DNA of 64,000 bases. Source: a virus. Taxonomy: Duplodnaviria > Heunggongvirae > Uroviricota > Caudoviricetes. Of this stretch, positions 17,541 to 64,000 are shown piece by piece. The position numbers and the translations under genes were made by a program. Within the stretch, counting starts at the first letter, position 1, and each line of letters opens with the position of its first letter. Under the pieces are notes generated by a model, which was not told the origin of the DNA, searched no databases, and saw only the letters and a list, made by a program, of their open reading frames with translations. The stretch lies in the IMG/VR virus record IMGVR_UViG_3300028895_001083; one strand, given 5' to 3'.

Positions 17541-17559
17541 CCCCTTCAGGAGGATGTAC

Positions 17560-37508: not shown

Positions 37509-38726
37509 ATGGCAGCGAGACCGCTAGCACTGGTATCGGCTGACTGGCATCTTCGTAAGTACGACCGCGTGTGGTACCGACGTGACACGCTGCGCGGCGA
37601 CGCCGCGTGGGGCGTCCGACAGGTATGCGACATTGCGGCCGAGCAAATGCCTGATTGTCTGATCCTGCTGGGCGACCTGTTCGACCAGCGGCTGCAGCAG
37701 TCAGATTCTCTGATGCTCATGCGACGAGCTATGGCTGATTTCCAGGAGAACAATATCCAAGTGCAGTTCATTCAAGGACAGCACGAGCGGTCTTCACCGA
37801 CGCTGATGAAGTCGATCCACAGCTGGTCACAGCATATCGACGAGCGGATGGTGGAGTTGGACAACGGCAACCTGCTCATGTACGGCCTGGATTATCGCAA
37901 TCCGGTCGAGGTTGAGGAGGCGCTGCGTGCCGTGCCTACAAACGCTGACATTTTGGCGACTCATCAGGTTTGGAAGGATTACCTTGGCGAGGAGCGCGGC
38001 GATGCCTGGTTCCACTGGGCGCCGACGCAGTTCATTGCCACGGGAGATTTCCACAAAGCGAAATTCGAGACGCGTGGGACGCAGAAGATCCTGTCACCGG
38101 GACCGCTCTGCATGCAGAACATCGGCGAGGATCACGAGAAGTTCGTGTTCATGCTGAACTCTGATCTCACCGTCACGCCATACAAATTGCGATCGCGCGG
38201 CTACTATGAGGCACGCCTGTACGAGGAAGCGCAACTCGAGCAATTCCTCGACGAGTGGGACGCCTCCCCGGCGAAGATCCCGCAGGTTGGCGTGCCGCCC
38301 GCCGTCGCAACAAACATCATCCGCGTTTGGTACCGTTCGGATATTCCCGACGCCAAGCCGCGGTTGGAAGGTAGGATCGGCTCATCGGCCCACCTATTTA
38401 CAACGATGATCCCTGTCGAAGACCAGGCACAGACGGTCGACGCCGAGCGGCGTGTCCAGGCTGTACTTGGTGCGGGCATGGTCGGATGCATCAACGAGTT
38501 TTACGGAGATGACCCTCGCGCATGCGCAGATGCCGTGCGGCTCTACCGTAGCAAAGACATCCAAACCGAGCTACTTTCAATCTTCAAGGAGCAAGTTAGT
38601 GTCCCTAACGGTCACCGAGAAGGAACATTTCAAGACGAGACTCCAGGAGATCCACGATCGAGCGACTGCACAACTGACGGCCGACGCGCCAGCGTGGGAG
38701 CCACGGCTCCGCAACAAGGCAGCTAA
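37509..38726 (+). CDS. sbcD: SbcD/Mre11-family nuclease
   Basis: Phosphoesterase motifs SADWH, LLGDLFD, GQHE and ATHQ. Paired with the downstream SbcC-like ATPase. Confidence 0.8.
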   Translation: MAARPLALVSADWHLRKYDRVWYRRDTLRGDAAWGVRQVCDIAAEQMPDCLILLGDLFDQRLQQSDSLMLMRRAMADFQENNIQVQFIQGQHERSSPTLMKSIHSWSQHIDERMVELDNGNLLMYGLDYRNPVEVEEALRAVPTNADILATHQVWKDYLGEERGDAWFHWAPTQFIATGDFHKAKFETRGTQKILSPGPLCMQNIGEDHEKFVFMLNSDLTVTPYKLRSRGYYEARLYEEAQLEQFLDEWDASPAKIPQVGVPPAVATNIIRVWYRSDIPDAKPRLEGRIGSSAHLFTTMIPVEDQAQTVDAERRVQAVLGAGMVGCINEFYGDDPRACADAVRLYRSKDIQTELLSIFKEQVSVPNGHREGTFQDETPGDPRSSDCTTDGRRASVGATAPQQGS

Positions 38727-39668: not shown

Positions 39669-40003
39669 GTGCGGACCTCACGTTGAAGTACGCAACCACT
39701 TTCACGAGTCTTGCTAACGCTATGCGACTTGTGAAGGCGTCGCTGCTGGCCCTCAAGGATGCCAGCGATAATCTCAACGACTGGTGGGACGACCAAGACC
39801 TCGAAGGTGTGGAGGACGAGGACGAGTTCCTCGCCAAGAAAGCCGCCGAGACTTTTGGCATCCCGGAGAGCTTCGCGCTCGCCCTTGTCGACTTTTCGTT
39901 GCTTCCAGAGATCAAAGGTATGAAGGCTGCGCCGCCTGACGCCATGACGCTCGCCGAAGCGCTATCACTACTGCACCCCCTAACAAGTGAGAGCTGGCCA
40001 TGA
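39665..40003 (+). CDS. Hypothetical acidic protein
   Basis: ATGA coupling on both sides. Confidence 0.55.
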   Translation: MSADLTLKYATTFTSLANAMRLVKASLLALKDASDNLNDWWDDQDLEGVEDEDEFLAKKAAETFGIPESFALALVDFSLLPEIKGMKAAPPDAMTLAEALSLLHPLTSESWP

Positions 40004-43763: not shown

Positions 43764-43797
43764 GGCCCGCTGGTGGCACAGCGAGCCTTTTGTGTTT
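43764..43797 (+). terminator. Rho-independent terminator
   Basis: GGCCCGCTG-gtggca-CAGCGAGCC (9 bp, 1 mismatch) followed by TTTTGTGTTT. Confidence 0.6.
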
Positions 43798-43898
43798 CAC
43801 GACCTGCAGGGGCATGCGGTCATGGCGGTATGTTACTGCCAATGATAGCGGACCCTGCGCATGTGGTCAACCCCGTTGGGGGGACCAAAGGACGCAGA

Positions 43899-45440
43899 AT
43901 GTCAAAAGTGGCAATGATCCGCAAAAGCGGACCGTTCATTGCGGTCTCGCAGGACGGCGTAGCTTCGCTCACGCCGAACGAATACCGGATCCTTGAAAAC
44001 CAGCTCTGGTACACCAAGCTCACGTTTCACTACGGTGCAGCTGCCTATGACCCCCATACGGGGGATCGGCAGAGCATGTCCGGCGAGCGCCGAAAGCTCT
44101 ATCAGTACGACAATAACGGACATTTCATCTGCCAGCGCGGCTTCTACCCCCGGGTTAGGGGGTTACTTGAGGAAGCCGGGTATACCATCACCTTCGTCGA
44201 CACGGATCCGCCTGTGGATCCTGTCATCTACACGCCCGACTGGGATCGGATCTTCGAACGCTTCCAACTCCGTGCGAAGCAGGACGAGTGTCTCGCCCAG
44301 ATCGACATGCACGACGGTGGCTATATCGATGCGCCTCCAGCGTTCGGTAAGACGCACGTAATGGCCATGGTGAGTTCCATGTACCCGAGGGCCAAGATTG
44401 ACATCGTGGCCAAGAGAAAGGACGTGGTGGGCCGTATACGCGATCTCCTGACGCGTTGGGTCCCTAGCGTCGGTATGGTCGGCGGAGGCAAGAAGCAGAA
44501 GGGGCGAGTCACGGTCTACACCGCTGACAGCTTGCACCACTCTGACTTCGACGCGCATATCATGCTGGCCGACGAAGGGCACGAGTTGATGACAGATCGT
44601 CTAGCCAAGCTGCTGGGCAACTATCACTACTCTCGCAACTTCGCATTCTCTGCTACCCCGGACACGCGCCTCGACAATGCCCACTTCCGCATGGAGGGCA
44701 TCTTTGGGCCGTGCGTCTTCAAGATGTCTCAGCAAGAGGCAGAGCAGGCGGGACTCGTGTCGCCTGTCTTCGTACAGTGGATCGATGTTCGGCTGTCGCA
44801 CAACCCGATCGCCAACATCAAGACTCTCGTGGCGCAGAAGCGCAACGGGATCTGGAGGAATCAATACCGCAACCAGGTCATCGCTGAAACCGCTCGGGCG
44901 TTCCGAGAGGGCGACGATCAGGTGCTCATCCTCGTCGACACAGTGGACCATGCATTGCATCTGCGAAAGCTGTTGCCGGAGGCGGCGCTGTGTTACTCTG
45001 AAGGTGCTCTCACCGACGGATCGAAGCGGGCCATGTTCATACGGAACGGTTTGCTCGACGAGGACGAACAGATGACTACGGCGCTGCGCAACAGTCTGCG
45101 GCACCAGTTCGAGAACCGTGAAATCAAGCTGGTCATCGCTACAGGTGTCTGGTCCGTCGGCGTGTCTTTCGATTCGCTGAACGTCTTGATCCGCGCCGAT
45201 GCCGGCGCCAGCGAAACTACCAACATCCAACTGCCCGGCCGCGTGTGTCGAATCGACCCATCGAGCGGCAAGCAGTGTGGCATTCTCATCGACTTCAATG
45301 ACGTATGGGATACGAAGTTCAAAGGCCGAGCCGCAGACCGTCGACGCGATTATCACAAACGCGGATGGACGCAGCTGCTGGCTGACGGCAAATTGTGGAC
45401 CCCAGGCATGAGAGTGAACCGTGTCGGAACACAGAAATAG
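43899..45440 (+). CDS. Superfamily-2 DNA/RNA helicase (DEGH-box)
   Basis: Motif I PPAFGKTH, II LADEGHE, III SAT, VI QLPGRVCR. AAAGGA SD. Confidence 0.75.
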   Translation: MSKVAMIRKSGPFIAVSQDGVASLTPNEYRILENQLWYTKLTFHYGAAAYDPHTGDRQSMSGERRKLYQYDNNGHFICQRGFYPRVRGLLEEAGYTITFVDTDPPVDPVIYTPDWDRIFERFQLRAKQDECLAQIDMHDGGYIDAPPAFGKTHVMAMVSSMYPRAKIDIVAKRKDVVGRIRDLLTRWVPSVGMVGGGKKQKGRVTVYTADSLHHSDFDAHIMLADEGHELMTDRLAKLLGNYHYSRNFAFSATPDTRLDNAHFRMEGIFGPCVFKMSQQEAEQAGLVSPVFVQWIDVRLSHNPIANIKTLVAQKRNGIWRNQYRNQVIAETARAFREGDDQVLILVDTVDHALHLRKLLPEAALCYSEGALTDGSKRAMFIRNGLLDEDEQMTTALRNSLRHQFENREIKLVIATGVWSVGVSFDSLNVLIRADAGASETTNIQLPGRVCRIDPSSGKQCGILIDFNDVWDTKFKGRAADRRRDYHKRGWTQLLADGKLWTPGMRVNRVGTQK

Positions 45441-45450
45441 CTCGTTGCGT

Positions 45451-46134
45451 ATGCAGCGGCCGCCGCCGGAAGAATACGAGGCGCTGCCGGAACGCAACAT
45501 GTTCTCCACCAACCCCGCTGGTCACATGGCCAGGCGGCTCTACCAAGCGTACAAACGCGAGACATACTGGCGTGCTATGCGCGTGGAGAATGTCAAGCTA
45601 CCGAACTTCAACACGCGCGAGCTGGGTGACTGCTGGCCGCGGCTGGCACGCCTCATCATGCAGTCGGGCTGGTCGAATGCCGAGCGGTTCATCCACGTGC
45701 AGTTCAAGTACGGGCCGAGCAGCGAGAAGCTGCAGACGCTCGAGCACGGACCGCTGGTGAACATGCTCACGTCCGAAAAGGCGATGAAGCAGTACACGCA
45801 GTACATCGTCCGTGCCGACAGCATGCTGGTACAGCAGTTGGAGTCTGCCAAACTCGAGTTCAAGTGTGCTAGCGCTGAATGCGCGGGACAGTACCCGCAC
45901 CTGCCCACCAGGGAGCGCTGGGAACTTATTCTCATGAATAAAATGTTGGATCTCCCGCCGCTGTTCCGGTACTGCGTGGCCTCTTCCGAGGGGCTCGCCT
46001 GTGCCAAGGACTTGTGGGAAGAAGGCTTTCAGCAGTTCATGTCCGATCCGATCGGGTATACGCGTACGTGGGAAGCGACCATTCCTGCCGAAATGAAAGC
46101 CGAAGCCGAAGAACTACTGCAGCTCAAACTCTAG
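45451..46134 (+). CDS. Hypothetical protein (contains intragenic palindrome site 5)
   Basis: First ATG after the helicase stop. Confidence 0.45.
   Translation: MQRPPPEEYEALPERNMFSTNPAGHMARRLYQAYKRETYWRAMRVENVKLPNFNTRELGDCWPRLARLIMQSGWSNAERFIHVQFKYGPSSEKLQTLEHGPLVNMLTSEKAMKQYTQYIVRADSMLVQQLESAKLEFKCASAECAGQYPHLPTRERWELILMNKMLDLPPLFRYCVASSEGLACAKDLWEEGFQQFMSDPIGYTRTWEATIPAEMKAEAEELLQLKL
45926..45941 (+). promoter_or_regulatory. Palindrome-family site 5 (TTATTCtcatGAATAA), intragenic
   Basis: Perfect copy inside ORF 45451-46134. It embeds in-frame ATG AAT AAA ATG and lies about 200 nt upstream of the DnaB-like helicase gene. Confidence 0.45.
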
Positions 46135-46145
46135 AAAGGGGCATC

Positions 46146-47801
46146 ATGGAGAACCCTATGGTCAAAGTGGAAGCGCCGGTAGCTCCTGTCAACGAGCCCG
46201 GGCAACTCCAGGAAACCAAGAAGGACGATATCGATCCCAATCCGATCGACGACTTCTCGATCGAGTTCCTGTTGCTGCACGCTTCTCGTGACCGCGAAGT
46301 CTACTATGCTGTGCGTCAGCACCTGGAGCCTGAGCATCTCGGCTTCCCGCAAGAGCTGCCGTATCGGGTGTACCTGAAGGCGTTGTACGAGTATTTCGAC
46401 AAGTACAACCGCCTACCCAATCGGCAGAGCATCTGGATCCGAGTGATCGACGAGCTTAACGCCATGCCAAACCTGCACGCCGATGTGTTCAAGGTGGCAG
46501 AGGGCGTGATGGACTGGATCTTCGACGAGAACGTCAACCCAATCTCGTCGTTCGAGCCCGACGCCGCGCTGGACATCCTGCGGAAGGTCCTGGTTGACCG
46601 CGGCCCCGGCCGCAGGTTGAAGGACGCCGTCGCCAGAGCGGGCTACAGCCACATCAACGATCTCCCAAAGCTGGTGCTCGCAGCACAGAAGCAGATCGAG
46701 GTGATCGAAACTATCGGACGTGTCAACGAAGAGGAGACAATACCGATGGAATGGGACCAAGTAGCGCGGCCACGCTGGCCGACTGGCGTGTCGTTTATCG
46801 ATCGCGCGATGGAAGGCGGTTCCGAGCCGGGTGACGTCAACGTCATCATCGGAGCCACGGGCGGCGGCAAGACTACACTGTCCATGCAGATGGCGGTGTC
46901 GATCGCACGCATCCAGAACCAGATCGAGATGACCGGAGACGGTGAGCCCGGCCTGGTGGTCTTCATCAGCTACGAGGATAACCGTCGAATGCTACAGATC
47001 CGTGCTGCATCCTGTGCGGCGCAGGTCCCGAAGAACCAGCTGCGCTTCATGCAAGAGCCGCTGAGCACTACGGGCAATCTGAAGAGCTACGAGCAGACCA
47101 TGTATCGTGCAGCGCCCGCCACTGGTGAGCTGCTGGGCGAACGTGAGCGCCTGCAAGCTGCCCGTGGGTGGCTCAACAGGTACATGAAGTTCGTCGACTT
47201 CCACGACGGTAAGGAAGGCGGCGGAGGCGGCGTTATGGAGGCACGGCAACGGTTACTCGCCATCCAGGGCAAGTCCGACATACCCATCCGCACCGTGGTG
47301 CTGGACTGGGCGGGCCTGATGGTGCGGAAGCACCTGCTGGAGACGAACCGTCAGGTCGACGGCAGCAACATGGCTGTGATGCTGGGCGGCTTGGTCGCTG
47401 AGCTGAAAGAGCAAGTCGCTGCCGAGTTCAACTGCACTGTATGGCTGCCGCACCAGCTTCGCGGACAGGCGACAGGCAGGTCTCCATCGGTTGCCCCAAA
47501 CCACAATGAGGCCGAGTGGTGTGCCTCCTTCGCCAATATGGCGTGGTATGCGTTCTGCATAGGGACCAAGGACAAGCAGCATAATGTCTGCCAGCTGGTC
47601 GCTACGAAGACGCGCCACGGTGAAGGTATGCCTCCGGCGATCGTACGCGTAGACGGCGGGTTTTGCAAGCTGACCGACGTGTCGGACCAGTTTGAGCCGG
47701 ACCATGTCCGACGACAGATCGTGCCGCGTGACGATGTTGCGAACTACCACGACAACATCCAAAACGAATCTGACGACTACTGGGACGAGGTCACATCATG
47801 A
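46146..47801 (+). CDS. DnaB-like replicative helicase
   Basis: C-terminal RecA-fold with Walker A GATGGGKTT and SYED-type Walker B region. N-terminal helical domain. AAAGGGG SD. Confidence 0.8.
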   Translation: MENPMVKVEAPVAPVNEPGQLQETKKDDIDPNPIDDFSIEFLLLHASRDREVYYAVRQHLEPEHLGFPQELPYRVYLKALYEYFDKYNRLPNRQSIWIRVIDELNAMPNLHADVFKVAEGVMDWIFDENVNPISSFEPDAALDILRKVLVDRGPGRRLKDAVARAGYSHINDLPKLVLAAQKQIEVIETIGRVNEEETIPMEWDQVARPRWPTGVSFIDRAMEGGSEPGDVNVIIGATGGGKTTLSMQMAVSIARIQNQIEMTGDGEPGLVVFISYEDNRRMLQIRAASCAAQVPKNQLRFMQEPLSTTGNLKSYEQTMYRAAPATGELLGERERLQAARGWLNRYMKFVDFHDGKEGGGGGVMEARQRLLAIQGKSDIPIRTVVLDWAGLMVRKHLLETNRQVDGSNMAVMLGGLVAELKEQVAAEFNCTVWLPHQLRGQATGRSPSVAPNHNEAEWCASFANMAWYAFCIGTKDKQHNVCQLVATKTRHGEGMPPAIVRVDGGFCKLTDVSDQFEPDHVRRQIVPRDDVANYHDNIQNESDDYWDEVTS

Positions 47802-48919
47802 AATCGGTTACCGGCGTGACCCTGGGCAACGATGCCGCAGGCGCACACGTCATCAACCCGTTCCTTTACGAGAAGCTCCAGAAACGCTTCGGCGATGTTA
47901 TCATCGCCAAGCAAGGCGAGCCGATCTACGGGAACTACACGTATGACGGCAGCGGCTTCAAGTACGACACCCTCGGCGGAGAGTATTATCGCGTCTGCTG
48001 CCCGTTCTGCGAGCAGAAGCGCGCGGTGGATACCAAACACCGACTGTGGATCAGCCATCGCTGGGGCGTCGGCCTCGACGAGGATGACCCGCAGACCAAA
48101 CTGAAGCCGAACGATCGGTTTTGGTGGGCGTGGGTGTGCTACAACGAGCATTGCGAAGAGAACCCGGCGAACACCAAACAGTTGCAGACCTGGGTCTACG
48201 GCGGTATCGGCCGGGAGCTACACGCGCCCGCCGTCAAGCTGCAGTTCCACACTGTGCCGATGGCGTCGCTCGGACTCGTCGACTGGCCTGGCCGCTGCTT
48301 GCGGGTGGACCAGCTGCGACCGGAGCACCACGCATGGCAGTACCTGGCGACCCGCGGCTTTGACCCCGCGGCAGTTGGCCCACGCTACGGCGTGACGTAC
48401 TGCGAGAGTGGTTCGGCGCGCTTCCCGATGGCGTTCGGACGGTTGGTGATCCCGATCGTGATGAACGGCGATATGGTTGGCTGGCAAGCCCGCCCGCCAT
48501 ATGAAGCAGACTGGAAGACCACCGCCAAGTACTACAACTGTCCCGGCATCAACCGGCGACTCATGTTGTACGGCTTCGACATAGCCAGGGCGTATCCGTA
48601 CTGCGTCATAACCGAGGGCGTCACCGACGTGTGGGCTGTCGGCCAGGGGGCGATCTCGCTCCTCGGCAAGCACATATCCCCGCAGCAGGCAGAGCTGATC
48701 GCGCAGAACTGGAAAGCAGCCGTGATCGCTCTCGACCCTGACGCAATGGACCGAGTCGAGCGTATCCAGCAGCAGCTGGGCAGTATGCCGACGGTGGTCG
48801 TGAAACTCCCAGACGGTTGCGATCCAGCTGACATGGATCAGGATCGCTTCTGGGATCTTGTATGGCAAAGTTCCGTAAACCAGAATGTTGATCTGTTAGG
48901 ACTACAGAATGATTCCTGA
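47798..48919 (+). CDS. DnaG-like DNA primase
   Basis: Zn-binding CCPFC...CYNEHC. TOPRIM acidic motifs VITEGVTD and ALDPD. ATGA coupling to the helicase. Confidence 0.8.
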   Translation: MKSVTGVTLGNDAAGAHVINPFLYEKLQKRFGDVIIAKQGEPIYGNYTYDGSGFKYDTLGGEYYRVCCPFCEQKRAVDTKHRLWISHRWGVGLDEDDPQTKLKPNDRFWWAWVCYNEHCEENPANTKQLQTWVYGGIGRELHAPAVKLQFHTVPMASLGLVDWPGRCLRVDQLRPEHHAWQYLATRGFDPAAVGPRYGVTYCESGSARFPMAFGRLVIPIVMNGDMVGWQARPPYEADWKTTAKYYNCPGINRRLMLYGFDIARAYPYCVITEGVTDVWAVGQGAISLLGKHISPQQAELIAQNWKAAVIALDPDAMDRVERIQQQLGSMPTVVVKLPDGCDPADMDQDRFWDLVWQSSVNQNVDLLGLQNDS

Positions 48920-51900
48920 ACTAGGTCTCGACGACCTTCAAGCGATTTTCCGCAACGACGAGGACAACGAGTACAGTCGGCGCTTTCCGATGTACCCCCT
49001 CGTGTCTCCCGGCATGCCGCCGCCTGGCCCGGACTTCATCGCCCACGCGAAAGCGCTCGGCGATGCTAACCCCTACGTCGTAGAGGGTACGGGCAAGAAC
49101 AAGCGCGGCATCGAAGCCGGATTCAAGCTGCAGTGCCTGTATCTGAAGGCGCTGTACTCGAACGAACTCCACATGCCCATCAAGGTGAAAGGGCGTACCG
49201 AGACGGTGCGCATCCTGCCCGGGCATCTCTGGGGCGATCATGCCGAAGGTCCCAAGTACCTCGAGAACGAGGAGCTGCGGGGACGACCGCGTGTGATGGT
49301 TGTTGGAAAGCACCCTGGCCTCGAAGAGATAGGCGAGGGACGCAACTTCGTCGGCCCGTCTGGCCGGCAACTGAAGGACACGTTGACCGCGCTCGGTCTG
49401 AGTGATGCCGAGCTCAATGATTGGTACGTGTGTAACCTGGTGCGTTGGATGAACGTCAATCCGCAGAGCGGCGCGTTGCCGCAGGCGTGGATCAAGGACT
49501 GTCTTCCGCTGCTGCACCAGGAGATCCGGCTGTACCGGCCTGACTATATCCTGTGCCTCGGGGCCGAAGCGACCAAAGCGGTCATCCCGGGCAACACAGT
49601 GAATACCATGGTGGGCCGTTACGTCGAGCGCACTGAGATGCTGCAAGAGTATGGCGAGCCTGATGACCTGCATACCTCCAAGGTGATGGCCATCACGCAT
49701 CCGGCGGCTGTGCTGCGTACCACGGAGTTGTACCCGGCGTTCGAAGCCACCCTGCGGAACTTCATCCAGTTGATCCGTGGCGAGGAGTTTACGAGCGCAG
49801 AGAACGACAACATCACGATCCAATACATGTACAAGGAAAGGGAGTTGAAGGAGTACGTTGACTACGTCCTTTCTCGCCCTGGGTTGAAAAAGATAGCAGT
49901 TGACGGTGAGTGGCACGGCCAGCATCCCGGCGAGCCGGGGTCGTACCTCCGTACGATACAGGTAAGCCACACCGGCAAGTATGCCGCCGTCATCGTCCTG
50001 CGAGGGCAGGGCGGTGGTACTGCGTTTCGACCAGGCATTTCGCGCGCGATCGATCACCTTAACCGGCTGCTCGATCGTGACGACGTCCAGATTGGCGGCA
50101 GCTTCTTCGCTGCTGACCTTCCGTGGCTTGAACACAACGGCCTGAACATCGCCCACCGCTTCAAGGTACCGCCCACGGTCGACGAGATCCGCGGCGGTAA
50201 CTACGCAGGCGGCTTCGACATCGGCTTGGCCCACCACGCCTACAACGAGACCGGTGACTTCAAGCTGGAAGTCATGGCCTCTCGGTTGTGCGGTGCGCCT
50301 CGCTGGGACGTTGCGCTGGGCGAGTGGAAGAAGGCGTACCTCAAGGAGCGGAAGATGAAGGACGAGGAGCTCGAAGGGTACGGAGAGTGCCCCGACGAGG
50401 TCCTACTGCCCTACGGCGGCAAAGATGCTGCCTACACACGTCAGCTGATGGACAGGCATTGCAACCTGCTGAACGGCGATCGCTACGGCAACGACTGCTG
50501 GATCCCGTTCCATCTGTCCATGATGGCATTCCCGGCCTTCAACGAGATGGGCACGATCGGCGTCAAGATCGACCCCGAACGCATTGATGAGCTCACCGAC
50601 CAATTCATCGAAGTGAGCGCCCAGAAGCTGAAGAAGCTTCAGGAGGACATCAACTGGCCGGCGTTCAACCCTCGAAGTTCACAGCAGTGTGTGGAATTCC
50701 TGTTCGGCGAGCGCTACTCTACGCGCCGTGACAAGGACACAGGAGAGCGGCTCAGCGTGCGTCCAGCGGGCGCCATGACGCTCAACCTGGAGCCCATCAA
50801 GTCCACTGGCAAAGGTAAGCCGTGGGGCTGGGTGATGTCCAGAGGCGAACAGGAGAAGTACACGCCGAGTACAGATAAAGAGACATGTGGCATTTTGGGT
50901 TTACAACACCCAATGGCGTTACAGCTACGCGACGTGAGGCTGATCGACCAAGTGTTGAAGTCCGTATTCCGTCCGCCTAAGTACAAGGCAAAATCGACGG
51001 AGATCGAACTCGACAGCAATGGCCGACGGATCTACGGCGGTGGCATCGCTAAGTACATATGCCATGACCAGCGTGTGAGAAGTTCGTTCCAACAAGTGAA
51101 GGAAACTGGACGTGCGTCAAGTGCGAGGCCGCCATTACAGAATATCAGTAAGCGTCGCGAAGACGATTACTCGAGAATCCTGGGTGACCAATACCGCTGG
51201 CCAATCCGGTCATTTATCGTCAGCAACACCGACCCCGGCTATGCCGAACCTACCGTCCTTGTAGAGTCAGACTATAAGGGCGCGGAACTTATGGGGATGG
51301 CGGTGATGGCTCGCGATGCGCAAATGTTGGATCACTGCTTACGCGCAAACCTGCCCGATGGCGATCCGCAGCAATATGATATCCACTCAAATATCGCTGT
51401 GACTTCCTTTCAACTTGACTGCGAGGCTAGCAAAGCTGGACTCGCATCGATCAAGCAGAAGGGCAAGCGCGTTGCTGCGAAAAACATCATCTTCGGCGTA
51501 GGCTATGGACGCACCGCGGAGGCGTGCGCCAGGCAGTGCCAGGAAGAAAATGCTCCTATCACCGTTGCGGAAGCGCAAAGCATTATCGACACGATCTTCG
51601 AGCTCTATCCGGGTATTCCAGCGTTGCAAGAGGCACTCCGTGCCCGCGTCGCTAACCCGGGATGGCTTAGAAATTGTTTCGGTAGGTATCGTCGATTCAT
51701 CAGCACGTCTGATCGAGCGGCGATGGGCGAATTGGAGCGCCAGGCACTGAATTTTCCGTTTCAGAGTATGGTAGCCGATGCCGTTTCGACGGCGCTATAT
51801 TGGCTACACAACCATCCTCGTAAAGAGGAACTTGGGTACAAGATTGTCCTCCAGATCCACGATGCGATCGTGCTGGAGGTCCCATGTCGCAGCTTGGACG

Positions 51901-52094
51901 TGGTACACAACGAGATCCTGCCAGAGTGCATGGTCGACAAAGTGTCCTTCCAGGCATGTGACTTAGACGGAGCTCCGTATGCGGACAGTCCGATCTACCG
52001 ATTTGGGTTGGATCAGGACGTGTTCACGCGATGGGGCTTGAAGTTGACAGAAGAGGAGTGTGAGCGGTTGGGAATTAGTCCCGATTATATCTAG
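48909..52094 (+). CDS. Family A DNA polymerase with N-terminal UDG-like (family 4-type) domain
   Basis: Pol motif A DYKGAELM, B KRVAAKNIIFGVGYG, C QIHDAIVLEV. N-terminal GKHPGLEEIGEGRNFVGPSGRQL and ITHPA resemble the UDG family-4 motifs GE(A/G)PG...FVG.AG and HPS. Confidence 0.9.
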   Translation: MIPELGLDDLQAIFRNDEDNEYSRRFPMYPLVSPGMPPPGPDFIAHAKALGDANPYVVEGTGKNKRGIEAGFKLQCLYLKALYSNELHMPIKVKGRTETVRILPGHLWGDHAEGPKYLENEELRGRPRVMVVGKHPGLEEIGEGRNFVGPSGRQLKDTLTALGLSDAELNDWYVCNLVRWMNVNPQSGALPQAWIKDCLPLLHQEIRLYRPDYILCLGAEATKAVIPGNTVNTMVGRYVERTEMLQEYGEPDDLHTSKVMAITHPAAVLRTTELYPAFEATLRNFIQLIRGEEFTSAENDNITIQYMYKERELKEYVDYVLSRPGLKKIAVDGEWHGQHPGEPGSYLRTIQVSHTGKYAAVIVLRGQGGGTAFRPGISRAIDHLNRLLDRDDVQIGGSFFAADLPWLEHNGLNIAHRFKVPPTVDEIRGGNYAGGFDIGLAHHAYNETGDFKLEVMASRLCGAPRWDVALGEWKKAYLKERKMKDEELEGYGECPDEVLLPYGGKDAAYTRQLMDRHCNLLNGDRYGNDCWIPFHLSMMAFPAFNEMGTIGVKIDPERIDELTDQFIEVSAQKLKKLQEDINWPAFNPRSSQQCVEFLFGERYSTRRDKDTGERLSVRPAGAMTLNLEPIKSTGKGKPWGWVMSRGEQEKYTPSTDKETCGILGLQHPMALQLRDVRLIDQVLKSVFRPPKYKAKSTEIELDSNGRRIYGGGIAKYICHDQRVRSSFQQVKETGRASSARPPLQNISKRREDDYSRILGDQYRWPIRSFIVSNTDPGYAEPTVLVESDYKGAELMGMAVMARDAQMLDHCLRANLPDGDPQQYDIHSNIAVTSFQLDCEASKAGLASIKQKGKRVAAKNIIFGVGYGRTAEACARQCQEENAPITVAEAQSIIDTIFELYPGIPALQEALRARVANPGWLRNCFGRYRRFISTSDRAAMGELERQALNFPFQSMVADAVSTALYWLHNHPRKEELGYKIVLQIHDAIVLEVPCRSLDVVHNEILPECMVDKVSFQACDLDGAPYADSPIYRFGLDQDVFTRWGLKLTEEECERLGISPDYI

Positions 52095-52218: not shown

Positions 52219-53586
52219 ATGTCACGCCAAGGTGCGGCCGCTGGCCGCTATCGTATGCGCAACGAGGGTCAAGCCTCGCAACGTGGAATTCAGGGTATGC
52301 ATATCCTGAACGACAACGCCGGTTGTCAAATCTACCGGCCAACCTGGAACGGCACCCGGACTATCTTCCGGCCGTTCCCGGGTAAGGATCCCGAGAACCT
52401 CGCAGCCTGGGACCCGTTCCGGCTGAGTGATGAAGATCGGGACTTCGGTGACTGGATCCGTCGATACGACATGGCATTCAGCATCGGTAACCCCGGGATT
52501 ACCTTCGTTATGAAGGATCCGCGGGACGGCACGCTGGACGACCAGCAGAACCCCGTCTGGATGCTGTATCGCAGCATTCAGCAAGCCGTGAAAGCCGGCA
52601 CCGGGCATCCCAGCTGGAATCCGCTTGTCTTCGGCGGCGCGGGTCGCGCCGCACCTCTGAGTTCTCCGAAGGATGGCTACATCATGCAAGGCATCCTGAT
52701 GGAACACAAATCGCAGCCGCAGAACCCGCCGCGCGGGTGCTTGCCCGACCATCAACCGGTCGTGCTGCTGATGAGCCAGTCCGCAGGCCAAGCCCTGATG
52801 GACAAGCTCGGCGAACGCGATGACCAAGGTAACTGGCGCTGGCCCGACCTTACCAGTCTTGACGCTGGCATGTTCGTCCAGTTCCACCAAGCCGGCACCC
52901 AAGCGCAACCCCAAGGCGGCGCACCCAGACAAATGGGCGCGACAACCGTCGGCGGAGGTGGCGTTGCCGAAAACCGCTACGAGGTGGAGTTCCTCGAACT
53001 CTACAGCGGTATCTCGCCCACGTTCGAAGGGATCCACGGCCTGGCCGAATCCCACGTTCGTCCCTGGGACGAGATCGTACGAATCCCCACCATTGAGGAC
53101 CAGGTCCGCATGTTGTGCGGCGCTGGCATTCCAGCGACGGCCATCGTCTACGCCCTCGGTGATGTGTACCAGGAGTTCATCCCGCAACACATCTTCGATC
53201 AGGCGCGTGCCCAAAACACGCAGACGACGGTTCCGTTCCAGAGCGTTGCCTCTGAGGGTGGTGGGACACCAAATCCAATGCAATCACAGGAAGCCCCGTC
53301 GCCGATGGGTGCTTCCCCCGCAGCTACGCAGCAGGATCCTGCCATGCCGGCGGCTACCACGCCGCCGCCTACGGCCGCTCCTGAGGCAGCTGGGAATCCC
53401 ATGGCTTCCGTGACGCAACCCGAGCAAACGCCTCCTCCAGAGGCTGCTCCTGCGCCACAGCAGACAATGACGAATGCAGAAGCAGCGCCGCAGGCGCAGC
53501 CGACGCACACTACGCCGGAGCGATCGGCGGCTACGCAGGATGCCCTCGCAAGGGCTCGTGCGCGTGCTGCTGACGCCGGCGGATAG
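52219..53586 (+). CDS. Hypothetical protein with P/A/T/Q-rich low-complexity C-terminal tail
   Basis: GTAGGAGGTGA SD. The last ~140 aa are proline/alanine-rich. Confidence 0.6.
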   Translation: MSRQGAAAGRYRMRNEGQASQRGIQGMHILNDNAGCQIYRPTWNGTRTIFRPFPGKDPENLAAWDPFRLSDEDRDFGDWIRRYDMAFSIGNPGITFVMKDPRDGTLDDQQNPVWMLYRSIQQAVKAGTGHPSWNPLVFGGAGRAAPLSSPKDGYIMQGILMEHKSQPQNPPRGCLPDHQPVVLLMSQSAGQALMDKLGERDDQGNWRWPDLTSLDAGMFVQFHQAGTQAQPQGGAPRQMGATTVGGGGVAENRYEVEFLELYSGISPTFEGIHGLAESHVRPWDEIVRIPTIEDQVRMLCGAGIPATAIVYALGDVYQEFIPQHIFDQARAQNTQTTVPFQSVASEGGGTPNPMQSQEAPSPMGASPAATQQDPAMPAATTPPPTAAPEAAGNPMASVTQPEQTPPPEAAPAPQQTMTNAEAAPQAQPTHTTPERSAATQDALARARARAADAGG

Positions 53587-53658: not shown

Positions 53659-55014
53659 ATGGCTAAGAAAAAGAAGCCCAATCCAGCTGAAGAGTTGCCT
53701 GTTGAGGACTTCTGCCCGAACGACGAACTGTTCGATTCAGTGGTAGAAACAGTCCAAACGAAGCTGCAGAAGGAGGGCATGCTTGTCGGTCACAATCCGG
53801 TGATGCAAGTGCTGCCCGTGCCTGCGTTCAGTATGAGGTATCTCATTCAGAACGAAGGCCTGCCGTTGAGTTGTATGTATCAAGCAGTAGGACCGGAGGC
53901 GTCCTACAAATCCACGTTCGCGATGGAAGTAGTTCGCTGGCACCGCCTGTGCGGTGGGCGTGGATTGTTGTGTGAGGCTGAGACGAAGCCGACATCTGAG
54001 TTACGCAACAGTGTCCTGAACTGGGACCTGAAAGCAGTCGATATCGAGGACTGCGAAACCTTTGAAGACTGGCAGCGCAAGCTGACTCGCTATACCGTCG
54101 GCTTGCAAAAGCGGATGGAGAAGGCGGGTACGCGGGACATCCCGTGGTGCGCTGTCGTCGACTCGCTGACCGGCAAGGCCAGTGAGCATACGCTGAAGAA
54201 CATCCAGAAGGTTGGTCATGCCAATCTGCACTTCCCCGTGGAAGCGCGACAGATGGCCGACTACATGCGTGCCTATCCGCAGATGCTTCTCGGGTGGCCG
54301 TTCACCTTCGTGGGTGTCAACCACATGAAGATCAACCGCAATCCTGACGGCACCGTCGACTACAACATCCCAGGTGGTTGGGCGCTGAAGTTCCAGTGCT
54401 CTGCTATCTTCGAGTTGGAGAAGATGGGCGGGATCAAGGAGTTCAACAACTACAAGGCGGCTACCATCCGCTTCTCCATGTTGAAGAACTCTTATGGAGC
54501 TGATGACTCCAAGATCAAGGTGCGGTTCAAGACGTGGCTGCAGGAGGACGCGCCTGATACGTTCAGGCTCCACTCTCGTTTTGAGTGGTGGGAAGCCTCC
54601 ATCCTCTTCATCGCCACTGGCAACGGGCTGTCGGCCGCTAAGGCCCAAAGGCTTGTGCCCAAGATGAAGGAAGCCTGCGACATCCACGAGAAGTCGGGCG
54701 GCAGCCGCGGGAAGCTATACTGGTCGAACGCGTTGGGCGTCCCCTCTTCGGAGGCGATGCCGCCGCACGATCTCGGCATGATCCTCGAGACGAAGCCTGA
54801 TGTGCTGAAGGACCTGTACAATGTTACCGGCATTCAGCGCCGTCAGTTCTTCCGACCCGGCGTCGATTTCCTGGCGCAGCAAGAGGCTCAGGCGCATGTG
54901 ATCGCGCAAGCCGATGCTTCGGATCTCAACCAGCAGCGTTTGCGAGAGATCCAGCAGAACATCATCGACCACGATGCCTACCCCAGCCAGGTGGAATGGC
55001 CATCCAATGAGTAA
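53659..55014 (+). CDS. Hypothetical protein (451 aa)
   Basis: Lys-rich N-terminus MAKKKKPNPAEE; no recognisable motif. Confidence 0.55.
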   Translation: MAKKKKPNPAEELPVEDFCPNDELFDSVVETVQTKLQKEGMLVGHNPVMQVLPVPAFSMRYLIQNEGLPLSCMYQAVGPEASYKSTFAMEVVRWHRLCGGRGLLCEAETKPTSELRNSVLNWDLKAVDIEDCETFEDWQRKLTRYTVGLQKRMEKAGTRDIPWCAVVDSLTGKASEHTLKNIQKVGHANLHFPVEARQMADYMRAYPQMLLGWPFTFVGVNHMKINRNPDGTVDYNIPGGWALKFQCSAIFELEKMGGIKEFNNYKAATIRFSMLKNSYGADDSKIKVRFKTWLQEDAPDTFRLHSRFEWWEASILFIATGNGLSAAKAQRLVPKMKEACDIHEKSGGSRGKLYWSNALGVPSSEAMPPHDLGMILETKPDVLKDLYNVTGIQRRQFFRPGVDFLAQQEAQAHVIAQADASDLNQQRLREIQQNIIDHDAYPSQVEWPSNE

Positions 55015-56648: not shown

Positions 56649-57776
56649 ATGGCAAAAACCACTCTACCCGCCAAGGTCGAAGAGTACACCGCTCTTCAAG
56701 CACAATCCACCTTCACGAAGGCCGAAGAGAAGGCCTTCAAGGAGTTAAACGAATATATCACCAAGCGCGCCAAGGACGACATCTGGTGGTATTGGGAGCT
56801 CGGTCAAAAGGTCAAGAAGATCTATGAAGACGCCAAAGACCGTGAGGACATCTACGGCAAGCGCGTGTTGCTGCGCATGGCCAAGGCTCTCGGCTACAAG
56901 ACAGACCAACAGCTCCGCAACACCATGACTGTTGTGGAGACTTTCAAGACGAAGAAGGAGTTCAACAAGCTCGTCCGGCTGAAGGGCGAAGCGCAGAACA
57001 CGTTGAACTGGTCGCACCTCGTGTACCTCGCCCAGATTGGCGACGACAAGCTGCGGAACCAGCTGGCCGCCTCCACGCTCGAACAGAGCTGGAACGCCAA
57101 GGACCTCTGGGACCGTGTCAAGGAGCTGGCCAACCGCAAGAAACGCGGTTCCGGCGCCAAGGTGAAGACCAAGATCCCGGCATCGCCGGTCGGCATGTTC
57201 AGCCATGTACGTTCGCAGGCCAACAAGTTCGTCCAGAACTTCGAGGAGGCGTGGACGGGCGACGTCTACGACATCTGCGGCGAGGTGGCCAGCATCCCGG
57301 CCGACAAGCTGAACGACAAGCTCGTCCAGGCCGTCGCCGACACGCGTGCGAAGCTCGTGTCCATGCAGGAGTGCGCCGCCTCCCTCGAAGAGCAGCTCAT
57401 GCAAGTTGAGGAGGACATCGAGGCCCGTCGTAAGGCCCAGGCGGAGGCTGAGGAAGAAGCCGCGGCTGCCGAAGCTGCCGAAGAGGACTACGAAGACGAT
57501 ATCGACGAGGGGGAGGACGACGATGACGACTTCGATCCGAACGACGACGTCTACGCTGAAGACGAAGCGGAAGACGCGGAGGAGGAAGAGGACGACGAGG
57601 TTGAGGAAGATTCCGCCCAAGACGAAGAGGACTGGGAAGAGGAAGAGACTGTCAACCTTGGCAAACAACGAAACGCTCAACGGCGAGCCAAGTCTGCCGC
57701 AGAGCGGGAAAAGAAAAAGAAACGTGAAGCTCGCGCTGCAGCTCGCCGCAAGGGGCGAGTGGGAGTAAGCAAGTGA
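56649..57776 (+). CDS. Protein with ~110-aa poly-acidic (D/E) region and basic C-terminal tail
   Basis: AEEEAAAAEAAEEDYEDDIDEGEDDDDDFDPNDDVYAEDEAEDAEEEEDDEVEEDSAQDEEDWEEEE followed by KSAAEREKKKKREARAAARRKGR. Confidence 0.6.
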   Translation: MAKTTLPAKVEEYTALQAQSTFTKAEEKAFKELNEYITKRAKDDIWWYWELGQKVKKIYEDAKDREDIYGKRVLLRMAKALGYKTDQQLRNTMTVVETFKTKKEFNKLVRLKGEAQNTLNWSHLVYLAQIGDDKLRNQLAASTLEQSWNAKDLWDRVKELANRKKRGSGAKVKTKIPASPVGMFSHVRSQANKFVQNFEEAWTGDVYDICGEVASIPADKLNDKLVQAVADTRAKLVSMQECAASLEEQLMQVEEDIEARRKAQAEAEEEAAAAEAAEEDYEDDIDEGEDDDDDFDPNDDVYAEDEAEDAEEEEDDEVEEDSAQDEEDWEEEETVNLGKQRNAQRRAKSAAEREKKKKREARAAARRKGRVGVSK

Positions 57777-62704: not shown

Positions 62705-63232
62705 ATGGCTAAACGTAGAATGTTTCAACTTCGACGTAAGGAAGCGCGGGCGGGTGCTCGCGATCCCTTTTACAATCCCGAACGGGACATCGCTCACCTG
62801 GGGCCAAACTTGCTCCGGGGCGCGATGGTCTCGTGCGAGGAGACGTACTGGGAGCCCTGGCTCAAGCAGTTCATGCTGGAGCAAGGCATCAGCTACCAGA
62901 CGATTGTGGATACGAATGCTCCTGTCATCCTGGCACGGGCGTTCAACCGCATTGTCAAGGCAGAGAATCCCAAGGTGGCGCTGGAGGCCGAAGGCTTCCA
63001 CGAGCTGCCGTCGGCGATTCAAATGCTTTTCTATACCCGCATCGGGCAGGTCTGCTTGGCCATGATCTGGGCGGGTGTGAAGGATGTGTCCAAGCCTGAC
63101 GACGCACCGCCAGCGACGGTTGTAAGCCTGCTGACGGACGTCGAGGACGGTTTCAAAACGTTCCTGGAAGGGAGCGACGAGGACGAAGATGCCGCGGACG
63201 GGAGCACCCCTGATCCAAGCCAATCCCAATAA
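62705..63232 (+). CDS. Hypothetical protein
   Basis: ORF with coding-like composition; acidic C-terminus. Confidence 0.55.
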   Translation: MAKRRMFQLRRKEARAGARDPFYNPERDIAHLGPNLLRGAMVSCEETYWEPWLKQFMLEQGISYQTIVDTNAPVILARAFNRIVKAENPKVALEAEGFHELPSAIQMLFYTRIGQVCLAMIWAGVKDVSKPDDAPPATVVSLLTDVEDGFKTFLEGSDEDEDAADGSTPDPSQSQ

Positions 63233-63293
63233 CTTACGAAGTGCGATGACCCGCGTTATCGCGCTGAGCCGACAGCTACAGTTGGTTGCTAAA

Positions 63294-64000
63294 ATGTCAG
63301 AACGATGGTTTCAAGAGTTCGCCGACCGTTACGGCTTTCCCGCAAATTACACCTGCGTGGACTGCGAGACGAACGGCGTGGACGTAGAACGCAGTCTCAT
63401 CTGCTCTATCGGGCACACGATCGTACGTGATGGCGTGCCTATTGAAACCCGGGAGGTCTACCTGAACTGGCCGGACTTCCCTGACATTGACCACGAAGAC
63501 TTCCAGCGAAAGCTGTACCAGACTCAGCAGGCGATGCAGTCGCGCGGCAAGGGCTTCCACCACACGTGGGAGCGGCTGCGCAACGAGGGTGAAGACCCCA
63601 TCGCCACCCTCGAACAATATCTCACGATGTTCGAGGACATGGAGGAGCGTCGAGAGGTCGTCGTTGCCCACAACGGGTGGCGGTTCGACATCGAGCTCTT
63701 CCAAGCGCACTTCCACAACTTCCTGCGCATCCCGTTCGTCTTCGAGCCTGAGCTCGTCTACGACTCCGGGATCGTCGAGAAGGCCAGTCAGCTTGACGAC
63801 TACGACGACCCGCTGCCTCTGCCTGGCGAGACCATGCAGCAGTGGGCGTGGCGCATCGGCGAACTCCGTCGGCGCGGCGTCATGTGGTCCCTCGAGGGCC
63901 ACTGCGATGACAAGTACCGCATCTTTGAGAAGGCGGGCGTCGGCAAGGAAGAGGCACACGCCGCGGGCGTGGACAGCCTCGTCCTGCACTATTTGGTTGA
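63294..64000 (+). CDS. DnaQ-like 3'-5' exonuclease (DEDDh), partial at window end
   Basis: Exo I CVDCETNG (DxE), Exo II VVAHNGWRFDIELF, Exo III HAAGVDSLVLHY (H...D). The ORF runs off the window and is absent from the ORF track. Confidence 0.7.
   Translation, partial: MSERWFQEFADRYGFPANYTCVDCETNGVDVERSLICSIGHTIVRDGVPIETREVYLNWPDFPDIDHEDFQRKLYQTQQAMQSRGKGFHHTWERLRNEGEDPIATLEQYLTMFEDMEERREVVVAHNGWRFDIELFQAHFHNFLRIPFVFEPELVYDSGIVEKASQLDDYDDPLPLPGETMQQWAWRIGELRRRGVMWSLEGHCDDKYRIFEKAGVGKEEAHAAGVDSLVLHYLV

Follow-up and report, generated by a model that had tools for sequence, protein, structure and literature searches.

The window analysed here is a stretch of 64,000 nucleotides (64 kb) from an uncultured phage (IMG/VR record IMGVR_UViG_3300028895_001083), in which a polymerase gene sits in a replisome/recombination cluster together with helicase, primase, UvsX-like, SbcCD-like and ligase genes. 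The relevant features are:

46014..47801, + strand, DnaB-like replicative helicase, an upstream replisome gene (PHROG 19, E=6e-26; Pfam AAA_25 and DnaB_C)
47798..48919, + strand, DNA primase, running into the start of the polymerase gene (PHROG 47, E=2.5e-35)
48909..52094, + strand, complete gene of a UDG-like/3'-5' exo/PolA fusion polymerase (ORF listing, three Pfam domains, PHROG 17)
48909..49283, + strand, clade-specific N-terminal extension, residues 1-125 (conserved segments, no family match)
49284..49778, + strand, family-4-type UDG-fold domain, residues 126-290 (Pfam PF03167)
49305..49319, + strand, UDG motif A, G133-K134-H135-P136-G137 (K134 codon 49308-49310; canonical GE[A/G]PG)
49698..49718, + strand, UDG motif B, H264-P-A-A-V-L-R270 (canonical HPSxxxR; aligns with HPSSLLR of UdgX)
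49821..50468, + strand, DEDDy-type 3'-5' proofreading exonuclease domain intrinsic to the polymerase, residues 305-520 (D332/E334 in Exo I, D403 in Exo II, Y502/D506 in Exo III)
50469..52091, + strand, thumb, palm and fingers of the family A polymerase, residues 521-1061 (D788 in motif A, R854/K858/F862/Y866 in motif B, H984-D985-A986 in motif C)
63189..64000, + strand, gene of a DEDDh exonuclease resembling DnaQ/RNase T, truncated at the window end (309 aa in locus L011)

The polymerase ORF (48909-52094, + strand) is a real ORF of 1061 aa. It shares 11 nt with the upstream primase gene, between its own ATG and the primase stop, and its product matches PHROG 17 'DNA polymerase' with E=8e-79. 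The identical protein is found on at least 23 metagenome contigs. It consists of four parts, an N-terminal extension (1-125), a UDG fold (126-290), an exonuclease domain (305-520) and a PolA part (521-1061), and we assign it to an uncultured jumbo phage, with contigs of up to ~220-230 kb, as its replicative DNA polymerase of family A. The UDG-PolA architecture is already published and hence not new (PMC10201439; bioRxiv 10.1101/2025.03.26.645540); the polymerase with its altered UDG is a fresh variant of this enzyme kind. Its relatives, known from metagenomes only, comprise at least 246 clusters at 50% identity and lie mostly on contigs of ~180-230 kb. By sequence they appear to form a large uncharacterised clade apart from the N4-like, SPO1-like and SP15-like enzymes (best ~23% identity). 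Counts within the clade are drawn from sets of 120 homologs, 151 representatives and 260 members.

The polymerase part is matched by Pfam DNA_pol_A (PF00476) at residues 711-1011 with 144.9 bits (E=4e-42, cutoff 34.3), and the family profile finds Bst Pol I and Klenow in the PDB at E~1e-44. The residues D788, R854, K858, F862, Y866, H984 and D985 are conserved, including the R-x3-K-x3-F-x3-Y and H-D signatures of family A. The preliminary description, made from the sequence alone, had called polymerase motifs A, B and C intact; the catalytic residues are indeed present, though motif C reads HDA instead of the canonical HDE. HDA also occurs in N4, Almagne and MaInes, and HDS in LysYB1 and MW202455.

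The exonuclease domain had been overlooked in that description. Pfam DNA_pol_A_exo1 (PF01612) matches residues 307-515 with 24.4 bits (cutoff 23.6), and the five catalytic residues D332, E334, D403, Y502 and D506, which are invariant in 120/120 homologs, line up with Exo I-III in the reference UDG-PolAs; the Exo II Asn of the reference enzymes is not conserved. In addition, the exo+pol core superposes on the Klenow fragment with a target-normalised TM of 0.85-0.87 over 756 columns. The Klenow-type domain is predicted to be active and to proofread in cis.

The exonuclease was instead proposed to be supplied in trans by a separate DnaQ-like gene at 63294. Such a gene does exist, as an ORF starting at 63189/63294 and running off the window end. 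Its translation contains VDCETNG, HNGWRFD and HAAGVD and matches Pfam RNase_T (24.2 bits, cutoff 24) as well as PHROG 192 'DNA polymerase exonuclease subunit' (E=2.5e-8), and the next gene encodes a RuvC-like resolvase. A polymerase without its own proofreader, served by this gene at ~63.3 kb and carrying a UDG-like domain that binds a modified genome base, would agree with the presence of a DEDDh exonuclease gene and with its PHROG label, and some T7-like phages do split their exo and pol genes (PMC10201439). However, the Klenow-like exo domain of the polymerase is complete and none of its catalytic residues varies, the DnaQ-like gene is at a distance of 11 kb, next to the resolvase gene, and base-modification genes were not found in the sequence examined. 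The combined model is barely credible, and the DnaQ-like gene was rejected as proofreader of this polymerase, since the complete exo domain with invariant residues is already there.

The N-terminal extension gave no match when residues 1-125 were searched against Pfam, PHROG and NCBIfam. It holds conserved FPxYPLxSPGMPxPG, LYxRALY and PGHLWG...GP segments, it is well ordered in the AF2 model (block pLDDT ~79-95), and the family profile spans it in most of the 150 representatives listed. In a comparison with the polymerases of SPO1, LysYB1, MaInes, Almagne and N4 it was missing from all five.

For residues 126-274 the Pfam UDG family (PF03167) is found with 77.7 bits (E=1.2e-21, cutoff 24.3), and residues 126-290 show the alpha/beta fold of the UDG superfamily. 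The likeness to family-4 UDG suggested earlier thus held, and a standard Pol I 5'-3' exonuclease, which was checked for at the N-terminus, is not what the domain is. The family-4 motif A GE[A/G]PG is not present. As had been noticed before, it reads GKHPG, with Lys in place of the motif-A Glu; in the HMMER alignment it lines up residue by residue with GEQPG of UdgX and GEGPG of the T. maritima family-4 UDG, so that K134 takes the place of E52 in UdgX and of the Glu in TM0511. Motif B, HP[S/A]xxxR, keeps its catalytic-type His in H264-PAAVL-R270. Other family-4 hallmarks are missing: the NCBIfam family-4 model TIGR00758 scores 67.4 bits, under its cutoff of 125.3, 'VRW' stands in place of 'VKC' and the N-terminal CxxC is lacking. 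Within residues 1-300 only C198 and C216 are conserved, therefore the four Cys ligands of the family-4 4Fe-4S cluster are absent and there is no such site. The R-loop of UdgX (KRRIH) is absent as well, with a 6-residue gap opposite to it in the HMMER alignment, and together with the unmatched GEQPG this led us to reject an identity as UdgX.

The Lys is the most conserved residue of the pocket, above H264 and N176. It is present in 117/120 homologs, 139/151 representatives and 245/260 clade members overall, and just 2/260 members have E or D at position 134. H264 is kept in 97/120 homologs and 125/151 representatives (~81-83%), the rest having N, Q, S or D (~17-19%), and the equivalent His was lost repeatedly, even among relatives that are 64-71% identical. 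N176 is kept in ~81-83% of the clade and an aromatic residue at 147 in ~50%. The uracil-contact residues thus vary across the clade; this protein retains F147, N176, H264, E140 and R270. Across the clade, an intact pocket is more frequent where residue 135 is polar (56/82 vs 62/178). Mean pairwise identity is 43.5% for the UDG-like domain, 47.1% for the exo domain and 53.1% for palm/fingers, and the UDG-like and exo domains are under purifying selection of similar strength.

In those ORFs of the 64 kb window that were scanned, no thymidylate-synthase homolog, dUTPase, PolX or AP endonuclease was found, and the precomputed gene table of the next 10 kb gives zero Pfam families for any gene; the survey for ligase and PolX covers ~74 kb of a genome of roughly 220 kb. 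The TerL of this phage is distantly SPO1-like. An NAD-dependent ligase is encoded within the window; a base-excision-repair-coupled system would need such a ligase too, which counts against regarding the UDG as impaired.

Our preferred reading, to which we give a probability of about 0.6, is that the UDG-like domain is a catalytically impaired UDG retained as a template-strand/DNA-handling module, in a polymerase that proofreads in cis. Canonical family-4 glycosylase chemistry would be strongly impaired because a cationic Lys stands here in place of the Glu that arranges the catalytic water and the contacts to uracil O2, and because roughly one clade member in five does without the partner His. 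In Tth UDGa the exchange E41Q lowers k2/Km 888-fold and H155S ~2,500-fold (PMC5387724), and in UdgX the same Glu, E52, activates the water or nucleophile (PMC10359453). Since loss of this Glu costs ~10^3-fold in one enzyme and the residue has an activating role in the other, the earlier proposal that the domain binds rather than excises a modified or uracil-like base is reasonable as far as binding is concerned; of a modified or uracil-like genomic base there was no sign in the window ORFs scanned and the next 10 kb. In the UDG literature we found no tested case of Lys at the motif-A Glu position. The domain would be retained chiefly as a built-in part of the replicase that handles DNA. In the solved structures of phiLo and YerA41 the UDG domain lies ~5 nt in front of the polymerase site, on the 5' template strand (10.1101/2025.03.26.645540), and by analogy the domain here probably guides or grips the template in its single-stranded form. 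The conserved Lys would touch the backbone or fill the catalytic site; the location of K134 and that of the UDG domain with respect to the template path are assumptions based on homologous structures. With F147, N176, H264 and E140 all present, base-specific binding, that is dU sensing without efficient excision, is possible in this protein. The position equivalent to 135 holds the catalytic Asp in family-1 UNG and an Asn in families 2 and 3. Against an impaired UDG it can be said that H135 could provide alternative water activation, and the coincidence of a polar residue 135 with an intact pocket hints that the sub-group including this protein still uses the pocket.

The domain might also still be an active monofunctional glycosylase with rewired chemistry, in which H264 stabilises the leaving base and H135 or another residue positions the water. 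UDG families 2, 3 and 5 work without the family-4 Glu or the family-1 Asp. The five pocket residues named above, including R270, are retained, the His at 135 occupies the site of the catalytic Asp/Asn elsewhere and a polar residue there accompanies the intact pocket, and SPO1, LysYB1 and Almagne have an Asn at the equivalent position. dU or another base would be removed from the template ahead of the fork, for which the SP15-like phages are a precedent, and the NAD-ligase present in this phage would complete the repair. H155 dominates catalysis in Tth UDGa, where the Glu meets uracil O2 via its main chain, but all Glu substitutions tested (A, D, N, Q) caused large activity losses (PMC5387724). 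Next to an oxocarbenium-like transition state a cationic Lys should be unfavourable, and neither PolX nor AP endonuclease, dUTPase or thymidylate synthase turned up in the window ORFs scanned or, as Pfam families, in the table of the next 10 kb. Moreover, H264 and the aromatic residue at 147 are variable, therefore glycosylase activity is not the conserved function of the clade. We regard continued base excision as unlikely.

Distinctly doubtful, though worth stating, is the proposal that the near-invariant Lys is no relic and, together with the intact pocket of the sub-group (KHPG, F147, N176, H264), makes the UDG fold something other than a plain glycosylase. It might be a read-ahead sensor for uracil or damaged bases on the template, or a Lys- or His-based lyase or crosslinker, with the 125-residue extension and its PGH motif taking part. 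A sensor of this kind would do in a family A replicase what the uracil pocket does in archaeal family B polymerases. In a more specific version K134 itself would be the catalytic nucleophile attacking C1', giving either a Schiff base (bifunctional glycosylase/AP-lyase) or a stable DNA-protein crosslink, a UdgX-like function with the motif-A Lys taking the place of the R-loop His. Bifunctional glycosylases of other superfamilies do use a Lys nucleophile, but we know of no member of the UDG superfamily that does. The conservation of K134 would fit, and its site adjoins C1', where UdgX has its nucleophile-activating Glu (PMC10359453). This version is nevertheless very improbable: the R-loop is missing, it would be harmful to break or crosslink the template strand directly in front of a replicative polymerase, and the pocket is degenerate in much of the clade while the Lys stays, which suggests a role of the Lys independent of the base.

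Coupling of template uracil removal to replication by a UDG-PolA was shown only recently, in SP15-like phages, and the N4-like enzymes carry a gutted UDG. The clade described here is an intermediate state, with the pocket largely intact and the key Glu systematically Lys, and it offers a natural system in which to ask what use a replicase has for a UDG fold after the chemistry has changed. The fold could guide the template or add processivity, it could sense bases and cause stalling, or it could perform new chemistry; if dU is bound without cutting, the domain could act as a polymerase-linked uracil sensor. As a practical correction, the enzyme should be treated as proofreading in cis, and the label 'uracil-DNA glycosylase family 4' that public annotation pipelines frequently give to such proteins is probably misleading.

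Published UDG-PolA fusions include the N4-like enzymes with inactive UDG (PMC10201439) and the SP15-like enzymes with active UDG (cryo-EM 2025; 10.1101/2025.03.26.645540). The SPO1-like UDG-PolAs are also counted among the fusions with active UDG. With these (SPO1 gp31, LysYB1) our protein shares the domain order UDG, 3'-5' exo, PolA, a kept motif-B His and a motif C of HD[A/S], and they give the best end-to-end BLASTP alignment among cultured phages, over query residues 128-1001. A ligase is present and PolX not seen in both. However, identity to the LysYB1 polymerase is ~23%, the SPO1-like enzymes have an acidic motif-A residue (QENPF, ADNPT) where ours has Lys, and ours has ~100 more N-terminal residues. 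SPO1 carries the dUMP-hydroxymethylase gp29 beside its polymerase, whereas no such gene lies near this one. Judged by identity and motif A, the protein does not appear to group with SPO1/SP-10, and its set of conserved UDG catalytic residues is incomplete.

The SP15-like enzymes (phiLo, PDB 9qhs; YerA41) likewise carry a UDG fold N-terminal to an exo+PolA replicase of large phages. They are characterised by active UDG motifs, a ~80-aa C-terminal domain and inserts 1 and 2; phiLo uses E53, P55 and H178 for catalysis and scans the template with its UDG domain at a distance of 5 nt ahead (10.1101/2025.03.26.645540). phiLo and YerA41 have these residues and excise dU experimentally, whereas here the Glu is Lys: K134 falls where E53 is expected, as judged from query residues 128-227 against chain residues 14-111 with an assumed chain-numbering offset of 33 residues. 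Of phiLo (9qhs), phmmer and the family profile detect the UDG part alone, the polymerase domains being too diverged. PolX and ligase co-occur in SP15-like genomes; here the ligase is present and PolX was not found in ~74 kb of ~220 kb.

In the N4-like PolA (cluster 17, Czernecki et al. 2023, PMC10201439) a UDG-derived N-terminal domain that lost canonical catalysis likewise sits on a proofreading PolA, and for UDG-PolAs with inactive UDG the domain was proposed to serve structure or processivity (PMC10201439). N4 gp39 has neither motif A nor motif B, whereas this protein keeps motif B, a near-complete pocket and a specific conserved Lys; BLASTP gave no match between the two at E<=1e-3, and the protein is not N4-like. 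Family-4 UDGs (Tth UDGa 1UI0, T. maritima TM0511 1L9G) and UdgX (6AIL) have a GE[AG]PG-type motif A and are free repair enzymes, while here the GKHPG-bearing fold is a polymerase domain without the 4Fe-4S Cys or the R-loop. The poxvirus UDG (vaccinia D4 / mpox E4) is likewise part of a replicative polymerase holoenzyme, but as a subunit in trans and not fused, with a family B polymerase as partner, and it is family-1-like and catalytically competent.

The polymerase gene is located in a replication and recombination block of the window, where its start codon (ATG) and the stop codon of the primase gene overlap.

37509-38726, SbcD-like protein
40000-42144, SbcC-like protein
43773-45440, SF2 helicase
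46014-47801, DnaB-like helicase
47798-48919, primase
48909-52094, + strand, UDG-like/exonuclease/PolA polymerase, 1061 aa (from the ORF listing)
53659-55014, UvsX-like recombinase
56649-57776, DUF1016 nuclease-like protein

Pfam searches of the polymerase detected PF03167 (UDG) at residues 126-274 (E=1.2e-21), PF01612 (DNA_pol_A_exo1) at residues 307-515 (24.4 bits, cutoff 23.6) and PF00476 (DNA_pol_A) at residues 711-1011 (E=4e-42), and PHROG 17 ('DNA polymerase') covers residues 126-1012 (E=8e-79). The full-length AlphaFold2 model, built from a 50-sequence alignment, is confident (pLDDT 92.4, pTM 0.88). In Foldseek the Klenow fragment superposes on it over ~756 columns (TM 0.85-0.87, normalised to the target), and therefore the part from about residue 300 to the C-terminus is, in the predicted structure, a standard exonuclease and polymerase core. 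The UDG-like nature of the N-terminal domain, proposed from the sequence in the preliminary description, is borne out by the PF03167 match; a 5'-3' exonuclease in this place was rejected, and Foldseek concurs. The motif C change from HDE to HDA was considered as a polymerase defect and dropped, because the polymerases of N4, Almagne and MaInes also carry HDA and those of LysYB1 and MW202455 HDS, so that HDA or HDS is common to the compared UDG-PolAs.

In the preliminary description the 3'-5' exonuclease was thought to be supplied in trans by a DnaQ-like gene, and the built-in exonuclease domain matched by PF01612 was overlooked. In the alignment of the 120 best homologs D332 and E334 (Exo I), D403 (Exo II), and Y502 and D506 (Exo III) are invariant (120/120), and they line up with the Exo I-III motifs of the N4, LysYB1, Almagne, MaInes and MW202455 polymerases. 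Therefore the claim of proofreading in trans is not supported, and a model that depends on it is contradicted by the intrinsic domain to the point of being practically untenable. The four-part architecture of the polymerase and its proofreading in cis are secure.

The DnaQ-like gene itself is real. It lies 11 kb downstream of the polymerase gene and directly before a resolvase gene, the latter placed on L011, a second locus that holds the complete DnaQ-like gene.

63189-64000, + strand, DnaQ/RNase T-like DEDDh exonuclease (start 63189/63294; 309 aa in L011; Pfam, PHROG and motifs)
L011 12049-12675, RuvC-like Holliday junction resolvase (PHROG 159, E=1.7e-21)

The DnaQ-like assignment is based on a threshold-level Pfam match (RNase_T, 24.2 bits, cutoff 24), on PHROG 192 (E=2.5e-8) and on the motifs VDCETNG, HNGWRFD and HAAGVD, recognised by eye; a phmmer search of the complete protein against the PDB gave nothing significant. 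A nuclease of its own for repair or recombination is the simpler reading of this gene, and its adjacency to the RuvC-like gene suggests a recombination/repair pairing and not a polymerase subunit.

The altered motif A reported for the UDG-like domain was confirmed. In HMMER alignments to solved structures GKHPG (residues 133-137, nt 49305-49319) stands opposite GEQPG in UdgX and GEGPG in the family-4 UDG from T. maritima, and HPAAVLR (264-270) opposite HPSSLLR. For Tth UDGa the pocket was mapped by mutagenesis to E41, G42, E47, F54, N80 and H155, with losses in k2/Km of 888-fold for E41Q, ~2,500-fold for H155S, ~120-fold for E47A, ~40-fold for N80A and ~17-fold for F54A (PMC5387724). The equivalent Glu in UdgX, E52, serves to activate the water or the nucleophile (PMC10359453), and E53, P55 and H178 are given as catalytic residues of the phiLo polymerase (10.1101/2025.03.26.645540). 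The counterparts of the six Tth UDGa residues in our polymerase are K134, H135, E140, F147, N176 and H264; the pocket change is a replacement of the 'EG' doublet by 'KH', with the remaining positions kept. Position 135 is the one where family-1 UNG has its catalytic Asp and families 2 and 3 have Asn. The four cysteines of the Fe-S site are missing, because only C198 and C216 are conserved, and the match to the NCBIfam family-4 model, at 67.4 bits, stays below the cutoff of 125.3. Together with the GKHPG motif, this led us to reject a canonical Fe-S family-4 UDG. A crosslinker of the UdgX type acting via the R-loop was rejected as well, as the alignment to UdgX showed that this loop is absent.

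The homolog search yielded 309 metagenomic relatives with the same three Pfam domains (40-74% identity), many of them on 180-230 kb contigs. When 1.84 billion representative proteins were searched with a profile of residues 1-300, at least 246 clusters matched at E<=1e-30, and in most clusters among the matches listed the N-terminal extension was covered, too. This extension (residues 1-125; 48909-49283, + strand) matched no family in Pfam, PHROGs or NCBIfam. It is predicted to be ordered in the model, where ~118 of the first 300 residues fall outside the UDG superposition. Near-invariant motifs specific to the clade are FPxYPLxSPGMPxPG, LYxRALY and PGH(106)LWG...GP, with H106 kept in 118/120 and 125/151 sequences. 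Compared with the polymerase studied here, many members of the clade have 300-900 additional residues, and many listed representatives reach 1400-1950 aa. The inserts include LAGLIDADG (PF03161) and intein/homing-endonuclease domains (PF14528, PF14890), for example in P0047, P0066, P0077, P0098, P0107 and P0117, so that, on sequence evidence, mobile inteins frequently target the polymerase gene. The copy in the window carries no such insert.

Position 134 is a Lys in 117/120 and 139/151 sequences and in 245/260 overall, and Glu or Asp in only two. The position of E140 is acidic in 149/151. H264 and N176 are each retained in 81-83% of the clade, position 147 is aromatic in about half, and even relatives that share 64-71% identity with the query can have N, S, D or Q in place of H264. 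The UDG-like domain has a mean pairwise identity (43.5%) near that of the exonuclease domain (47.1%). It is under purifying selection, with the Lys and the scaffold more constrained than the classical catalytic His. An intact pocket is commoner where position 135 is polar (H, N or Q) (56/82 against 62/178; odds ratio 4.0, Fisher p=6e-7, uncorrected for phylogeny), suggesting two functional states in the clade. The query belongs to the intact-pocket sub-group.

We consider the UDG-like domain to be probably derived from family 4, with its canonical glycosylase chemistry strongly impaired, and to persist as a built-in part of the replicase that handles DNA (probability about 0.6). The earlier proposal that it binds and does not excise is sensible in view of the altered motif, as far as activity can be judged from sequence. 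The retained pocket residues would also fit a glycosylase that is still active through rewired chemistry; the exchange of the motif A Glu and the drift of H264 fit it less well, and we regard it as unlikely. The near-invariant K134 might bring to mind a Lys-nucleophile enzyme, which we hold to be very improbable. For an impaired, DNA-handling domain, the conserved Lys might contact DNA or fill the catalytic site. By analogy with phiLo and YerA41 the domain would probably sit on the incoming template strand, and in the query it may still recognise uracil.

Further genes are encoded elsewhere in the window.

6435-7325, + strand, radical SAM protein (auxiliary gene)
7482-8393, + strand, DUF7873 protein (auxiliary gene)
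10682-12565, - strand, TerL
17404-19683, + strand, NAD-dependent DNA ligase of the LigA type, full-length (OB, zinc-finger, HhH and BRCT domains)
22063-22632, - strand, NT5C-like deoxyribonucleotidase (nucleotide-metabolism gene)
27893-28318, + strand, nucleoside diphosphate kinase (nucleotide-metabolism gene)
35165-36676, + strand, bifunctional HldE-like heptose-7-phosphate kinase/heptose-1-phosphate adenylyltransferase (Pfam PfkB and CTP_transf_like)

The ligase has a ~120-residue N-terminal extension before its LigA domains, the radical SAM protein is weakly MoaA- or viperin-like, and a sigma-70-like factor is also encoded. TerL shares 23-32% identity with the terminases of SPO1-like Herelleviridae and of some large phages that infect Vibrio and Salmonella. 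The HldE-like protein scores 243 bits with the NCBIfam HldE model, below the cutoff of 521, and may supply a nucleotide sugar for glycosylating DNA or another target; in SPO1 a heptose-pathway gene, gp30.2 (phosphoheptose isomerase, 15566-15970 of the SPO1 record L006), adjoins the dUMP hydroxymethylase and UDG-PolA genes. A 455-aa ORF (52219-53586, + strand) separates the polymerase gene from that of the UvsX-like recombinase, and its synteny is conserved on two other contigs, L007 and L008. No family of Pfam, PHROGs or NCBIfam matched its product, in which P, A, Q and T are abundant over the C-terminal third and which is a candidate SSB or accessory protein of the replisome. No thymidylate-synthase homolog, dUTPase, dCTP deaminase, PolX or AP endonuclease was found among the window ORFs of at least ~150 aa and a few shorter ones, nor in the next 10 kb downstream, where no gene has a Pfam family assigned in the precomputed gene table and six genes were scanned with PHROGs. 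This absence of partner genes for dU, thymidine modification or base-excision repair is weak evidence, because about one third of a ~220 kb genome is covered and many small ORFs lay outside the scan.

Fusions of a UDG with PolA have already been described, so their novelty was overestimated in the preliminary description. Czernecki et al. 2023 reported that the UDG of N4-like polymerases is inactive and that the UDG residues are conserved in the polymerases of SPO1, SP-10 and SP-15 (PMC10201439). By cryo-EM and assays, Missoury et al. 2025 found that the SP15-like polymerases of YerA41 and phiLo excise template dU 5 nt ahead of the polymerase site and bypass the AP site, and that they co-occur with PolX and ligase (10.1101/2025.03.26.645540). 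Reference polymerases were taken from GenBank phage records, and the SP15-like group entered the direct sequence comparison as PDB 9qhs only. An SP-15 match to the UDG region was rejected as the SP-15 polymerase, since it is the stand-alone UDG SP15_100.

In contrast to GKHPG of the query, motif A reads GESPG in MaInes, GEAPG in MW202455, QENPF in SPO1, ADNPT in LysYB1 and GDNPN in Almagne. All five keep an acidic residue where the clade has its Lys; the exception is the N4 polymerase, which has neither motif A nor motif B. The annotated start of the Almagne polymerase (V...GDNPN; OM982619.1, L001 2974-3079) looks truncated: the frame is open upstream, with a Cys-rich stretch (CKACDKCEL...) and a beta-strand before motif A, and overlaps the end of the annotated dCMP deaminase gene.

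In BLASTP the query aligns end to end with the LysYB1, MaInes and Almagne polymerases at ~23% identity and has no match to N4 gp39; together with the motifs missing from N4, this led us to reject membership in the N4-like group. None of 50,697 phage records was matched in a megablast search with window positions 40-64 kb, and the best tblastn matches of the polymerase to phage records are only 22-26% identical. Among solved structures, the family profile puts the polymerase core closest to bacterial Pol I, with phiLo missing from the top 60 matches. Taken together, the motif, BLASTP and profile comparisons place the query, as judged from sequence, among the UDG-PolAs but outside the N4-like and SPO1-like groups and probably outside the SP15-like one. 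Its clade appears as a distinct, large and uncharacterised one, marked by the N-terminal extension and the motif G-K-x-P-G.
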